Shown in pieces: positions 136-31,280 of a stretch of DNA of 64,000 nucleotides (within the stretch, counting starts at the first letter, position 1; every line of letters begins with the position of its first letter). Source of the stretch: Lama glama. Its lineage: Eukaryota. The position numbers were made by a program, and so were the translations under genes. The stretch lies in the NCBI GenBank assembly GCA_028534125.1, contig CM052816.1, forward strand, positions 26,538,001 through 26,602,000, read 5' to 3'. Below the pieces are notes generated by a model that searched no databases, was not told the DNA's origin, and worked only from the letters and a program-made list of their open reading frames with translations.

Positions 136-1500
136 AGAAGATGGCGGAGTAGAAGGACGCTCACAGCTCACCCCTCTCCCACAAATGCACCGAGATTCAC
201 ATCCACAGACCCACTCAGCCAACCAGAGCACCTGAGGAACTCCGACAGAACATCGCCCTCTTCAAAAGATAAAGACACCAAAAATCTGGTAGGAGAAAAG
301 GAAAAAAGAAAGAACAAAAGGCAAAGCAGCGCAGGACGGGTCCCGCGGGGAGGGAGCGGCAAAGGAGGACTGGCGCTCGCTCGCTGGGTCTCCCCTCTCC
401 AACTGAGAGGCCAGCGGGACGGAGGGGGAGCCTCCGAGGCTCGGATCTGTACAGAGCAGCCCTTGTCTGCCAGAACTAAGTTAAACGGGCACAGAGCGTC
501 CCCCCGACACCCAGCCTGAGACGCGGGCCGGCAGCGGCGGGCAGGGCCAGGCTGCACAAGCCAGGCGGAGGACAGGGGCGGCTGCACGGAGGCAGCTCCG
601 GGGGACTGCAAGGGGCTGGACGCCGTGCCTGTGGGTGTACAGGATAGAACAACCTGGGCCCTCCATAAAACAGCAAGGTTGATGTGCTCTCGGGGGAAGG
701 GTGCATACCCCCATCTCTGAAAACCCGCGGAAACTTTTCAGGGGAAGAGAGGCGGGGCCCAGGCACAGCCGCCATATTCTCCAGCGCTTAGCACCCAGGC
801 GGGGGCAGAGACGAAACCTGCATCCGCACCGAAGGGCTCAGCAGCCTCAAGGGCCAGACTGAGGCGGGCCTACAGCCTGGGGCAGGTGGGATCCTTCCAT
901 CCTGGTCCCTCAGAGAACTTGCTCCACAGAGACAAACAAGGAGCTGGGTCTTGGCTCGGAGCAGGGACGAGGCTGCCCCTCGGTCTTCCCAGAGCCCACC
1001 CGCAGAGTGCTGACCAGGGCAGCGGAGCGCGCAGCCACACAGAGCAGCGGAGCTACCGCCGCAGGTAGAGGGAGAGCGGCCCCCCGCCTTTCGGGCAGGA
1101 ACGCAGCCCCTGACCTCCGTGCTGTGAGGGGGAACGACCCGCCCTCCTGCCTGGCCAGTCTGCAACATCTGACTGCGGCATCCGGAGGGGCAGTGACCCG
1201 CCCGCCCACAGCAGAGGAGAGCTGCACCTGACCCAGTGTTGGGAGGAGGCGCGATCTGCTTGCCGACAGGTGCTGGGAGCAGCACAGAAGAGGGCGCCAA
1301 TGGAGGGCCTCTGGAAACAGCAAGCTGAGCTTCCAAAACAGGACGAAGACAGAAAGACTTCACATTAAAGGCACACAGACTCCAGGAGAACACCGACACC
1401 CCCCACCATTTTTTTTTAAATCTGTTTTTACCTGTTCTATTTTCTATTACCCTCTTAATTTTTACCTCTTAATTCATTTCTATTTCTCTTGGGTTTTGAT
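136..1500 (+). mobile_element. Young LINE-1 5'UTR (CpG-rich internal promoter), truncated by assembly gap
   Basis: Starts with YY1-type AAGATGGCGG (138-147), CpG-rich ~1.25 kb, then T-rich tract; first ~150 nt homologous to 30901-31052. Confidence 0.85.
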
Positions 1501-2000
1501 NNNNNNNNNNNNNNNNNNNNNNNNNNNNNNNNNNNNNNNNNNNNNNNNNNNNNNNNNNNNNNNNNNNNNNNNNNNNNNNNNNNNNNNNNNNNNNNNNNNN
1601 NNNNNNNNNNNNNNNNNNNNNNNNNNNNNNNNNNNNNNNNNNNNNNNNNNNNNNNNNNNNNNNNNNNNNNNNNNNNNNNNNNNNNNNNNNNNNNNNNNNN
1701 NNNNNNNNNNNNNNNNNNNNNNNNNNNNNNNNNNNNNNNNNNNNNNNNNNNNNNNNNNNNNNNNNNNNNNNNNNNNNNNNNNNNNNNNNNNNNNNNNNNN
1801 NNNNNNNNNNNNNNNNNNNNNNNNNNNNNNNNNNNNNNNNNNNNNNNNNNNNNNNNNNNNNNNNNNNNNNNNNNNNNNNNNNNNNNNNNNNNNNNNNNNN
1901 NNNNNNNNNNNNNNNNNNNNNNNNNNNNNNNNNNNNNNNNNNNNNNNNNNNNNNNNNNNNNNNNNNNNNNNNNNNNNNNNNNNNNNNNNNNNNNNNNNNN
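1501..2000. other. Assembly gap (500 N)
   Basis: Run of n. Confidence 1.
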
Positions 2001-3235
2001 AAGACTTAAACATAAGACAAGATACAATAAGCCTCCTAGAAGAAAATATAGGCAAAAACATTATCTGACATACATCTCAAAAATGTTCTCCTAGGGCAGT
2101 CTACCCAAGCAATAGTAACAAAAGCAAGAATAAACAAATGGGACCTAATGAAACTTACAAGCTTCTGCACAGCAAAGGAAACCATAAGTAAAACAAAAAG
2201 ACAATGTACGGAATGGGAGAAAATTTTTGTAAATGAAACTGACAAAGGCTTGATCTCCAGAATATATAAGCAGCTCATATGACTTAATAAGAAAAAAACA
2301 AACAACCCAATCCAAAAATGGGCAGAAGACCTAAACAAGCAATTCTCCAAGGAAGACATCCAAATGATCAATAGGCACCTGAAAAACTGTTCAATATTAT
2401 CAGAGAAATGCAAATCAAAACTATAATGAGGTAGCATCTCACACCTGTCAGAATGGCCATCATTCAAAAGTCCACAAATGACAAATGTTGGAGAGGCTGT
2501 GGAGAAAAGGGAACCCTCCTACACTGCTAGTGGGAATGCAGTTTGGTGCAGCCACTGTGGAAAACAGTATGGAGATTCCTCAAAAGACCAGGAATAGACT
2601 TACCATATGACTGAAGAATCCCACTCCTGGGCATATATCCAGAAGGAACCCTACTTCAAAAAGACACCTGCACCCCAATGTTCATAGCAGCACTATTTAC
2701 AATAGCCAAGACATGGAAGCAGCCTAAATGTCCATCAACAGATGACTGGATAAAGATGTGGTATATTTATACAATGGAATACTATTCAGCCATAAAAACT
2801 GACAACATAATGCCATTTGCAGCAACATGGATGTTCCTGGAGAATGTCATTCTAAGTGAAGTAAGCCAGAAAGAGAAAGAAAAATACCATGTGAGATTGC
2901 TCATATGTGGAATCTAAAAACAAAACAAAAACAAAAACAAAAGAAACAGACTCATAGACAGAGAATACAAACTTGTGGTTGCGAAGAGGGCAGTGGGTGG
3001 AAAGGGATAGACTGAGATTTCAAAATGTAGAATAGATAAACAAGATTATACTGTATAGCACAGGGAAATATATACAAGATCTTATGGTAGCTCACAAGAG
3101 AAAAAAATGTGACAGCGAATACATATATGTTCATGTATAACTGAAAAATTGTGCTCTACATTGGAATTTGACACAACGTTGTAAAATGATTATAAATCAA
3201 AAAATGTTAAAAAAGAAGAAAAAAGAAAAGAAAAT
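2001..3235 (+). mobile_element. Young LINE-1 3' ORF2 + 3'UTR + A-rich tail
   Basis: ORF 2678-2917 [26 protein letters not shown]...EYYSAIK is the L1 ORF2 C-terminus; frameshifted; A-rich tail ~3200-3235. Confidence 0.92.
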
Positions 3236-3244
3236 TACTACATC

Positions 3245-3438
3245 TATAGACTAGATAAAAAAGATTATACTGTAGAGCACAGGGAAATATATACAAGATC
3301 TTGTGGTAGCTCACAGCAAAAAAATGTGACAATGAATATATATATGTTCATGTATAACTGAAAAATTGTGCTCTACACTGGAATTTGACACAACATTGTA
3401 AAATAACTATAACTCAATAAAAAATGTTAAAAAAAAAA
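3245..3438 (+). mobile_element. Second L1 3'-end copy (5'-truncated) directly after the first tail
   Basis: Near-duplicate of 3030-3215 ending AATAAAAAATGTT + poly(A). Confidence 0.85.
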
Positions 3439-6849: not shown

Positions 6850-9800
6850 ATATTGAGTAAAAAATTCAAAATTATATTAAATATGCTTAAAAAGTTAAAG
6901 AACATGATCAAGGGACTAAAGGAAATCATGAAAGCCATAATCAACATGAGAATATCAACAAAGAGAAATAAAAAGAAACCAAAAAGAAATTCTGGTCCGA
7001 GAAATACAGTAACTGAATTAAGAAATACACTAGAAGTGTTCAACTGCCTACTCAAATGTATAAAAGAAAGAAAATCAGCAAATTTTAAGACAGGTCATTT
7101 GAAATGATCAATTCTGAGGAGGAAAAATATGTAGAAAGTAAACAGAGTCTAAGAAGTGTACAGGATATCATTAAGGAGATCAATATCCACATTTTAGGAG
7201 TTCAGACGAATAAGAGAACAGGACAATAATTTCATGTGAAGAAATAATAGCCGAATTTGAGGAAATACATGGAGACACATATAAAAAGATAAAAGACCTC
7301 TAAGTAGGAAAAACCTATTACAAACTATTGAAAATCAATGACAAAGAAAAAGTCTTCAAAGTAGCAAGAGAAGAGTGACAAATCACACACAAGGAATCCT
7401 CTGTAAGAGCCAAAGCAGAGCTCTTAACAGAAACCTTGGAGGCTAAAAGGCATTAGAATGACCAATTTAAAGTCCTGCAAGAAAGAGAAAACAGCCAACC
7501 AAGAATTCAATATGCAGTAAAACTATCCTCAAAAATCAAGGAGAAATGAACACTATTCTGAAATAATCAAAGCTAAGGGAGCTCATTACCACTAGAACTG
7601 CACTACAGAAAATGCTAAAGGGAATTCTTCAACTTGAAATGAAAGGACATCAGACAACAACTTGAAGACATAGGAAAATATAAAGTTCTCCAGTAAAGGC
7701 AAATACATGAACAAAGATAAAACCAGTATTTTTAAAAAGGATTTAAAAGATAAAAACATAAAAATTATATATCTATGTTAATGGGTAGTAATACATAAAT
7801 ATGCAATTTGTGATATCAATAACATAAAGCTGGGTGGGGGTAGCCATAAAGCAGAAATTTTTCCCCTTCAGCTTTATTGAGGTATAATTGGCAAAAAAAA
7901 GGAACAGAGTTTTTTATGTAACTGAAGTTATTATAACCACAAAGAAAATACCTACAGTATGTACACAAAAAGGAAATGAGAAGGGTACTAAAATGCATCA
8001 CTAGAAAGAAAATGAACAAAACACCAAAGAAGGCAATATGGAAACAAACAAACAAAAAACCTGTAAGATATACAGAAAACAAATAGCAAAATGGTAATAA
8101 TAAATCTTCCTACCAGTAATTACTTTAAATGTAAATAGGTTAGACTTCTCTATCAAAAGAACAGATTGGCAAAATGGGTTAAAGAAAAAGAAGCAACTGT
8201 GTTCTGTCTACAGGAGACTCAATTTAGATCTAAGGACACACACACATTGAAAGTTAAAGGATAAAAAAAAGATACTCTATGCGAACAGTAACTGAAAGAG
8301 AGTAAGTACAGATACTAACTAATATAATATAAAATAGATAAACAACAAGTTTATACTGTACAGCACAGGGAACTATATTCAATATCTTGTAGTAAGTTAT
8401 GGTGAAAAAGAATATGAAAATGAATATATGTATGTTCATGTACAACAAGCATTATGCTGTACATCAGAAATTGATACATTGTAAACTGACTATACTTTAA
8501 TAAAAATATACATATACAAAAATTTTTTTAATTAATGGGAGTTAGAATGGCTAAAATTATATCTGATAAAATAGACTTTAAGCCAAAATCTGTCATGAGA
8601 GTCAAAGAAAGGATTTACATATTAATAAAAGGATTAATTCACCAAGAAGATATAACAATCATAAATATTTACGCACTGAACCCTAGAGCTCCTAAAAACA
8701 TGAAGCAAACTTTGACAGAATCGAAGGGAGAAAATATAAATACAGTAATAGTATGAGACTTCAATAGTCCACTTTTGATAACAGATAGGAAAATGAGACA
8801 GGAGATCGATAAGGAAATAGATGACGTGACCAACACTGCAGGCCAATTTGATCTAACAGACAAACAGTGAACACTCCACTCAGACATATATTCTTCTCAA
8901 GTACACACGAAACATTCTACTAGGCTACAAATCAAATTTACCAAAACTGAGATTATACAAAGTCTTTTGCTATCACAATAAAATGAAACAGGAATCAATA
9001 ACAAAAGGAAATCTGGAAAACTCATTTATATGTGGAAATAATACTTTCTTAAACAACCAATAGGTCAAAGAAGAAATAATAAAATAAATTAGAAAACATC
9101 ATGAGACAAATGAAAATCAAAACAAAGCATACCAAAATTTACAGGATGCAGTAAAAGCAGTGCTAAGAGGAAATTTTATAGCTATAAACGCTTACATTTA
9201 AAAAGAAGATATCAAATCAGTAACCTAACTTTATACCCTAAGTAACTAAAAAAAGAGTAAACAAGAGCCAAAGCTAACAGAAAAAAGAAAATATTAGAGC
9301 AGATAAACAAAGGGAAGAAAAACAGTAGAGAAAAATCAATGAAATCAAGAGTTGATTCTTTATAATGATCAATAAAATTGGTAAACTTTTAGTTAGACTG
9401 ATGAAGAAAAAACACTCCAGACCTCCAGTGACCAAAGTCAGGAATGAAAGAGGGGACATTTCTACTTATTTTGCATAAATAAAAAAAACTATAGACATAA
9501 ACCATAGACAACTATAAAAATAAAACTGGATAACTTAAATGAAACAGATAAATTGCTAGAAATGGACAATTTACCAAGACTATATCACAAATAAAAGTAT
9601 GAATAAAACTTTAGCTAGTAAAGAACTGAACCAGTAATAAAAAAAATCTCTCCCACCAAAAAAAAAAGCCCAGGAAGCCCAGATGGCTTCCAAATATTTA
9701 AATTAAGACCAATCATCTGAAAACTCTTCCAAAAAAGTGAAGTGGGTAGAAAACTTCTAAACTCATTCTGTGAGACAGCATTAACCAAATAACAAAACCA

Positions 9801-30644: not shown

Positions 30645-31280
30645 TTAAATCAACTTTATTGAGGTGTAATTTACATACAATGAAGTGCACTCACTTTAAG
30701 TGTATAGTTCTAGGCATTTAATCTGTACAACTACTGCAGTGAAGATGCAGGGCATTTCCAATACCCGACCAAGCTCCCCTGGCTCCTTCCTGTCCGTGGT
30801 TCCTCTACCTGCACCCCTGGCCTCAGGCAATCTCTGATCTGTTTTCTGTCACTGGAGGTTAGTTTTGTCATTTCTAAAATTTCAGTTAGAGAGCAGAGCC
30901 AAGACGGCGGAGTAGAGAGACTCACAGCTCGCCACCTACCACAAATACACCAAGAATTACATCTACAAACCCATTGAATCACACAGAACACCTACTGAAC
31001 TCTGGCAAAGTGTCTCTCACTTCAAAATATAGGAGTATTCTCACAAAATCCGATAAACAACAAGTGTATACTGTATAGTACAGGGAACCATATTCAATAT
31101 CTTGTAGTAACTTATGGTGAAAAAGAATATGAAAAGGAATATAGGTATGTTCCTATACGACTGAAGTACTGTGCTGTACACCAGAAATTGACACAACATT
31201 GTAAACCGACTGTACTTCAATAAAAATATATTTAAAAATAAAATAAAATTTCAAATAAACGGAATCAGCCAATATATTTT
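30645..31280 (-). mobile_element. Old L1MB/ME 3' end hosting the spliced L1 insertion
   Basis: caactttattgaggtgtaatttacatacaatgaagtgcac...; resumes aataaacggaatca after 31253. Confidence 0.75.
30885..31243 (+). mobile_element. Spliced non-autonomous mini-L1 (5'UTR head fused to 3'UTR tail; SpIRE-like)
   Basis: 5'UTR head homologous to 136-288; junction aaaatccg|ataaacaacaag at 31052/31053; AATAAA 31219; TSD taaaatttca 30875-30884 and 31244-31253. Confidence 0.85.

Follow-up and report, generated by a model that had tools for sequence, protein, structure and literature searches.

Short head-plus-tail L1 derivatives in the llama genome, very likely copied from spliced L1 transcripts

Introduction

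L1 is regarded as being held back by the splicing of its RNA, and spliced integrated retrotransposed elements (SpIREs) are seen as rare dead ends that still carry ORF2. In humans, SpIREs make up 131 of the 6,609 annotated full-length L1PA1-6 elements (~2%), according to the portions of Larson et al. (2018, PMC5860796) used here. They were spliced either within the 5′UTR or into ORF1, and in the same portions their promoters are called weak and the elements themselves evolutionary dead ends. Cases described earlier by Belancio and colleagues are cited there. Spliced L1 RNAs that retain ORF2 are described for human tissues in the consulted part of PMC2896524.

Bipartite LINE derivatives lack ORFs and consist of the ends of a LINE. 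According to the excerpts of Kojima (2018, PMC5786205), reports of them had been confined to the RTE, Ingi, Vingi and R2 clades; they are attributed to internal deletion, for reasons given as unknown. RIME/Ingi, NARTc/L1Tc, RTE-N elements and Bov-A are the examples named. For the L1 clade, these excerpts refer to HAL1, the "half-L1" of Bao and Jurka (2010), a non-autonomous case that retains ORF1.

Here, we followed up a short element in a 64,000-nt stretch of the Lama glama genome (hereafter the window). A reading of the sequence alone, the original prediction, had proposed that this element is a spliced mini-L1, in which the head of an L1 5′UTR was joined to an L1 3′UTR tail at GT-AG sites. 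The element and its relatives, referred to as minis, were compared with the L1s in the window's own assembly (2.35 Gb).

Structure of the window element

The coordinates of the window element and of the two L1 copies used as comparators are collected in Table 1. Slashes mark breakpoints.

Table 1 Features of the window element and of the comparator L1 copies in the window.
Feature	Position	Strand	Remarks
Mini-L1, whole element	30885-31243	+	~360 nt, L1 5′UTR head fused to L1 3′UTR tail
5′ target-site duplication taaaatttca	30875-30884	+	Identical 10-mer again at 31244-31253
Predicted exon 1 (5′ end of the L1 5′UTR, running from the start of L1 up to splice donor 1)	30885-31052 (168 nt)	+	Ends ..aaaatccg
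Predicted exon-exon junction aaaatccg/ataaacaa	31045-31060, break between 31052 and 31053	+	
Predicted exon 2 (final ~170 nt of the L1 3′UTR, from the 3′ splice site to AATAAA)	31053-31224	+	
AATAAA	31219-31224	+	Inside exon 2
Degenerate A-rich (poly(A)) end	31225-31243	+	Direct reading of the letters
3′ target-site duplication taaaatttca	31244-31253	+	Directly after the A-rich end
Comparator L1 head, other subfamily	138-290	+	Donor ctg/GTAGGA; the L1 spans 138-3214
Comparator 5′-truncated L1 3′ end	8311-8527	+	Intron side of the acceptor: TACTAAC at 8313-8319, AG at 8336-8337

All coordinates that were checked agreed with the original prediction. The head at 30901-31052 matched the L1 head at 138-288, with 112 of 152 letters identical and an alignment score of 63, compared with a mean of -12.6 for 500 shuffles (sd 5.8, max 7). 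Where the head of the mini ends, the longer copy reads on as aaaatctg/GTAGGA, with the GT at 289-290. The mini resumes at 31053 with ataaacaacaag, the start of an L1 3′ end. The same word is preceded by AG at 8336-8337, and a close variant by AG at 3034-3035. TACTAAC is present at 8313-8319, and the tail (31053-31243) is identical to 8338-8520 in 161 of 191 letters. AATAAA, the A-rich end and a single taaaatttca duplication around the element were likewise where they had been placed.

Two comparators were misassigned in the original prediction. The long copy at 138 has a homologous donor, but it is not of the mini's parent subfamily: it belongs to a different L1 subfamily (74% identity), and the real parents carry a better donor, GTAAGA. 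What had been called an 8.3-kb copy does have the AG and the TACTAAC, but it is no long L1; it is a short, 5′-truncated L1 3′ end (~8311-8527) in the ORF2 of an older L1.

Against 50 full-length heads of the L1 subfamily that it matches, the predicted exon 1 of the window mini aligned at 75-92% identity. The window mini had no sense ORF of at least 20 aa, ARAGORN predicted 0 tRNA genes in it, and Rfam gave 0 matches at E values up to 1. Its head is L1 5′UTR, and not a Pol III head from a small RNA (tRNA, 7SL, 5S) as in SINEs. The mini comprises only the 5′ and 3′ parts of an autonomous LINE, with no ORF. The 5′ target-site duplication opens within tttct/aaaa, which fits the A-rich start of other copies, and a short A-rich stretch ahead of the 3′ repeat was also found in other mini copies.

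The window copy had been credited with a YY1-type head. The box in question is kept in part of the family, but not in the window copy itself. The box AAGATGGC, presumably the YY1 core, was present at the 5′ terminus of 33 of the 70 minis retrieved (see below), and the window copy carries the mutated form AAGACGGC in its place.

Several observations concern the other L1 sequences in the window. The L1 at 138-3214 looks full-length and contains a 500-N assembly gap (1501-2000); most of its body lies outside the window sequence. Two similar L1 3′ ends (3036-3215 and 3255-3434) are arranged head to tail, ~40 nt apart and 90% identical, and go back to a tandem duplication or else to two insertions, one nested in the other. 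The truncated 3′ end at ~8311-8527 (~215 nt) sits at the start of the ORF2 of the older L1, and the ORF2 stretch around this insertion resembles the L1 3′UTR near TACTAAC. A homology-driven fusion of ORF2 and 3′UTR at 8100-8340 was considered and rejected, as ORF2 resumes at ~8531, after the inserted L1 3′ end.

Family size and integration marks

The junction 30-mer given with the original prediction had 135 matches with up to three mismatches, and its reversed-pattern control had 0. Two 24-letter patterns of equal length, sharing the last 18 head letters and differing in their continuation, were searched with up to two mismatches. The spliced pattern (..ATAAAC) had 279 matches (control 0) and the unspliced pattern (..GTAAGA) 264 (control 1). 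Mini copies were about as many as unspliced heads of the GTAAGA type, at a ratio that is approximate because the search scores only the best candidates and all genome counts are lower bounds. A known mini on contig C1, for example, was absent from the listing of tail starts. Compared with the 7,038 tail matches, minis accounted for ~4% of the insertions with these tails.

We fetched 70 mini copies: 8 loci from the 30-mer search, 2 junction variants from the search for parental heads (see below), and 60 further matches of the 30-mer in listing order, with 13 two-mismatch matches on small contigs and the later three-mismatch matches left out. The junction was spanned in all 70. Identity to the window copy ranged between 71 and 90%, and was mostly 82-90%. 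The median length between fixed reference points was 331 nt, and 65 of the 70 copies began at query position 14 or earlier, that is, at the L1 5′ end. AATAAA was found in 48. Exact repeats of 10-21 bp abutted the element in 29 copies, the cut-off being the 95th percentile (9 nt) of mismatched-flank pairs, and 22 of these 29 repeats began with A. The family carries the hallmarks of L1 integration, namely target-site duplications, poly(A) ends and A-rich targets.

The 70 copies lay at 69 separate sites. The expectation of further copies with the same junction, at separate loci and with their own duplications, was borne out.

Some copies were multiplied after insertion. L064 and L065, ~96 kb apart on contig C23 of the assembly (G000), share their flanks and represent one insertion that was duplicated later. 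L126 and L127 on C81288 are identical in sequence; both pairs are segmental or inverted duplications and no separate insertions. A mini variant with an altered junction (..CCGGTCAACAAGTT) occurred at the same offsets on at least 8 very short contigs (C225449, C227625, C392726, C392926, C834068, C834679, C837693 and C838390 of G000), which suggests either assembly redundancy or a DNA-level duplication carrying one mini.

Sequencing runs were screened with words sampled from a 1,251-nt stretch, 29% of which is the window element. The 14 DNA runs, with five organism labels and from six studies, held 0.83-0.91 of these words, suggesting that the filled site may be common to the samples sequenced. 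RNA runs held 0.05-0.26 of the words and gave no evidence of expression. With pairwise head distances of ~0.14-0.17, the mini family is old, and it is probably inactive now.

Splice sites in the parental L1s

The pattern used to search for parental L1s consisted of the 18 letters that close the head, with Y permitted at the CpG site, and one further position open to every letter but A. Neither G nor T was forced by this pattern. The parents read on as ..CYG/GTAAGA(G)AAAAA, and a hand count among the matches listed found GT next in 53 of the 55 zero-mismatch unspliced rows. Fifty heads were fetched, 45 of them from the zero-mismatch unspliced rows on large contigs and 5 with one mismatch; ten rows on small contigs were left out. 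L112 was unanchorable. Among the remaining 49 full-length heads, the 5′ breakpoint was followed by GT in 47 and by GTAAGA in 30. This donor, a strong 5′ splice site, sits about 160 nt into the parental 5′UTR.

On the acceptor side, AG directly preceded the first 14 letters of the tail in 83 of 100 L1 3′UTR matches listed (hand count), typically as ..TACTAACTACTATATATAAAATAG. An acceptor script covered 20 non-mini L1 3′UTRs of the matching kind, and AG preceded the tail in 18 of them. TACTAAC, with up to one substitution, was found within 40 nt in 15, and in 13 of these the AG used was the first AG after the TACTAAC-like motif. The branch A was most often 18 nt from the end of the predicted intron. 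The acceptor context in the parents is accordingly TACTAAC, ~18 nt, and then ..AAAATAG/ATAAAC. The polypyrimidine tract ahead of the AG is poor (TACTATATATAAAATAG), which counts against splicing. The junction is ambiguous by one letter, the G. In L133, a full-length L1 of 6.8 kb with its own target-site duplication, the donor and the acceptor are ~6.5 kb apart.

GT after the 5′ break and AG before the 3′ break had both been predicted, and both were found in the parents. As in SpIREs, the segment that the minis lack begins with GT and ends with AG in the unspliced relatives, and the same junction occurs at independent loci. In our judgement, the element was very likely retrocopied from an L1 transcript that had been spliced.

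A probable second spliced isoform

One copy, L111 (G000:C36:18275320-18276620, - strand), reads through the first donor. It continues for 268 nt further into the 5′UTR, to ..GGAGATGG, which is joined to ATAAAC. This isoform is ~600 nt long (~312-917 in element orientation) and ends in a poly(A) stretch. At the corresponding position, full-length L1s read ..GGAGATCG/GTGAGG, with GT in 29 of 37. The second junction had 8 matches with up to three mismatches; one of these was an unspliced L1, and four had at most one mismatch. Accordingly, the isoform is present at 4-7 loci in the genome, compared with 251 unspliced matches. Two GT donors joined to one AG are hard to explain except by splicing, and together with the GT and AG at the parental breakpoints they support the splicing origin that had been proposed.

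The GTAGGA subfamily as a within-genome control

The subfamily of the comparator at 138 differs from the mini parents at both sites. Its donor is changed to GTAGGA, and its 3′UTR reads ..TTTCAAAATGTAGAATAG ahead of the tail, without TACTAAC. Five tails of this subfamily were 86-91% identical to the window tail, similar to minis. Its unspliced head pattern had 1,964 matches. The spliced pattern had 7, none of them convincing, compared with 10 in the control. Since the subfamily with the changed donor and no TACTAAC lacks convincing minis, mini formation tracks the quality of the splice sites.

The 98-Mb contig C37 of G000 carries a large share of the full-length heads listed, for both subfamilies. 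Such an enrichment would be expected if the contig were an X chromosome.

Subtypes and their relation to L1 subfamilies

Three variants were linked in the minis: A/T at 30897 and T/C at 31020 in the head, and C/A at 31153 in the tail (Fisher p ~1e-5 per pair). The haplotype A-T-C was found in 25 copies, T-C-A in 15, A-C-A in 6, and A-C-C in another 6, including the window copy. Other combinations accounted for 18. In full-length heads, the two head sites were linked in the same way (13, 7, 1, 20; p = 5e-5), and each tail variant is also an ordinary L1 tail, with 2,063 matches for one and 4,975 for the other. Every head haplotype seen in full-length L1s, namely (A,T), (A,C) and (T,C), also occurred in minis, where the tail variants matched.

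Heads and tails fell into two types, and full-length elements with both ends linked them. A type I head was accompanied by a type I tail in three elements and by a mixed tail in one. A type II head with a type II tail was found in one element, L155, which has a target-site duplication and an assembly gap inside. When tails were fetched at a fixed offset from 20 full-length L1s, 15 gave no tail and 2 only a tail of the other kind; 10-kb fetches around three full-length L1s gave no tail in two. In head and tail alike, the two subtypes of mini correspond to two L1 subfamilies, with the type II link coming from L155 only.

A tree of 119 heads was star-like, with minis and full-length L1s interleaved (30 label changes, compared with a shuffled mean of 38). 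It had 0 well-supported branches, and is therefore compatible with a few mini source copies. Within type I or type II, no alignment column was specific to minis relative to full-length heads, except for the CpG site, which is biased by the search patterns. Mean pairwise K2P distances over non-CpG columns were 0.155 for type I minis and 0.139 for type II minis, compared with 0.180 and 0.206 for full-length heads of type I and type II. Type I minis were nearest to type I full-length heads, and type II minis to type II full-length heads. The lower divergence among minis than among full-length heads (0.14-0.155 vs 0.18-0.21) could reflect fewer sources. These data are read most simply as an L1 lineage that went on giving off minis while it evolved.

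The suggestion that the window element belongs to a SINE-like non-autonomous family fared unevenly. The copy number agrees with a family, but the check for shared diagnostic changes found none specific to minis, and the subtypes mirror L1 subfamilies.

Origin of the minis

We consider it probable that the minis arose by repeated de novo splicing of L1 RNA, followed by copying in trans by L1 proteins. Pol II transcripts would start from the L1 promoter, and the host spliceosome would remove an intron of ~6.5 kb from them, consisting of the rest of the 5′UTR, ORF1, ORF2 and the start of the 3′UTR. A polyadenylated, non-coding RNA of ~340 nt would then be exported. Since this RNA encodes nothing, it would have to be reverse-transcribed in trans, after capture by the ORF2p of intact L1s. 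Target-primed reverse transcription at A-rich sites would produce the target-site duplications, and the shortness of the RNA would explain why almost all copies extend to the true 5′ end. Successive L1 subfamilies would have given rise to this one junction again and again, leading to ~280 copies. A mini share of ~4% is high for an RNA moved purely in trans, and is easier to account for if the head kept by the minis also drove their own transcription.

Such transcription is central to a different explanation, which we regard as possible but rather unlikely. Splicing would have made only the first mini or minis, and most of the ~280 copies would descend from mini sources with a promoter in the ~165-nt head, as a self-propagating, SINE-like non-autonomous L1. 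The parity of minis with unspliced heads (279 vs 264) points this way, being far above the ~2% of SpIREs in humans (131/6,609 in the consulted portions of PMC5860796). So do the box AAGATGGC kept in 33 of 70 minis, the greater likeness of minis to one another than of full-length heads, and an excess of type I in minis (32:18) relative to tails (2,063:4,975). However, no diagnostic change parts minis from full-length heads in either type, and a closed mini lineage would have had to gain all full-length haplotypes in parallel, each with its matching tail. The weak promoters of human SpIREs with 5′UTR deletions, as described in the same portions of PMC5860796, also speak against mini sources. Repeated splicing followed by copying in trans is the reading we prefer to such a lineage of mini sources.

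Explanations that dispense with splicing fit the data poorly. Recurrent internal deletion, by a template switch of the reverse transcriptase from the 3′UTR to the 5′UTR or by short-homology DNA recombination, each followed by amplification, could draw on the 1-nt ambiguity (G) of the junction, on AAAAT located 3-5 nt upstream of both breakpoints, and on the internally deleted bipartite LINEs of other clades, whose cause is described as unknown in the excerpts of PMC5786205. But both breakpoints fall exactly at a parental GT and AG, where the donor match extends beyond the GT and a motif resembling a branch site is present, and another GT donor is linked to precisely this acceptor letter. A repeated switch to one point from different subfamilies would need more than a single nucleotide of homology, and no convincing mini came from the subfamily with the weakened donor and no TACTAAC. 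We consider such deletions highly improbable. A local deletion after insertion of a full-length L1 at the window locus, which the original prediction had itself raised, has practically no chance of being correct. Nothing beyond the structure of a single copy favours it, but the identical junction recurs at 69 separate sites among the 70 copies fetched, many with duplications of their own, and at hundreds of places genome-wide. Because different loci with their own target-site duplications share one junction, local deletion is refuted and the family is confirmed.

Comparison with known systems

An L1 head-tail mini of this kind was not described in the parts of the literature searched, including those of a camelid TE survey (PMC8605555). 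A more far-reaching reading, possible but rather unlikely, is that the L1 clade has here its first non-autonomous bipartite derivative without ORFs, and one made by GT-AG splicing. In an L1 lineage whose donor is near the consensus and whose branch site is perfect, about 1 in 25 insertions would be a mini; with their promoter-bearing head, the minis would temporarily have been Pol II-transcribed parasites of L1, and the GTAGGA subfamily, with its weakened donor and no TACTAAC, would have escaped this loss. If this reading is true, a LINE can be reduced to its head and tail by ordinary splicing rather than by random deletion. On the splicing origin that we consider very likely, one mammalian L1 lineage lost its whole coding region to a single 6.5-kb intron, with a product equal in copy number to the full-length copies that bear the head. 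The family provides a natural measure of what internal splice sites cost a LINE, with a control within the same genome, the subfamily with changed sites and no convincing minis. It also offers a concrete, testable mechanism for the origin of head-plus-tail non-autonomous LINE derivatives. For annotation, minis will be split into L1 5′ and 3′ fragments, inflating the counts of "full-length" L1 5′ ends.

Minis share features with several other short retrotransposed sequences. Like processed pseudogenes and Pol III SINEs, they appear to be copies of a short polyadenylated RNA made in trans by L1 ORF2p, with target-site duplications. Their template, however, would be the spliced RNA of L1 itself, and they have no tRNA-, 7SL- or 5S-derived head. 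HAL1, as covered in the excerpts of PMC5786205, is also a non-autonomous mammalian L1 derivative without ORF2, but it encodes the ORF1 protein, whereas the mini has no sense ORF of at least 20 aa. With the bipartite LINEs in the same excerpts, the minis have in common that only the 5′ and 3′ ends of a LINE are present, with a true 5′ start, presumed Pol II transcription and dependence on the proteins of the parent. What sets them apart is a mammalian L1 as parent and a deleted part that is very likely a GT-AG intron.

The closest likeness is to SpIREs, as far as these are documented in the portions of the literature consulted. Both go back, the minis very likely so, to spliced L1 RNA with a GT donor near the start of the 5′UTR; the copies have target-site duplications and poly(A), and one junction is found at many loci, across successive L1 subfamilies. 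Changes in the 5′UTR alter the splice events of human SpIREs, a further parallel to the mini family. The differences lie in the extent of the loss and in abundance. Human SpIREs keep ORF2, and usually ORF1; the acceptor of the minis is in the 3′UTR, which leaves ~340 nt and no coding sequence, and their mobilisation would be wholly in trans. Minis are about equal in number to unspliced heads (279 vs 264), compared with ~2% in human. The mini family is SpIRE-like, but with all ORFs removed and far more abundant than its human counterparts.
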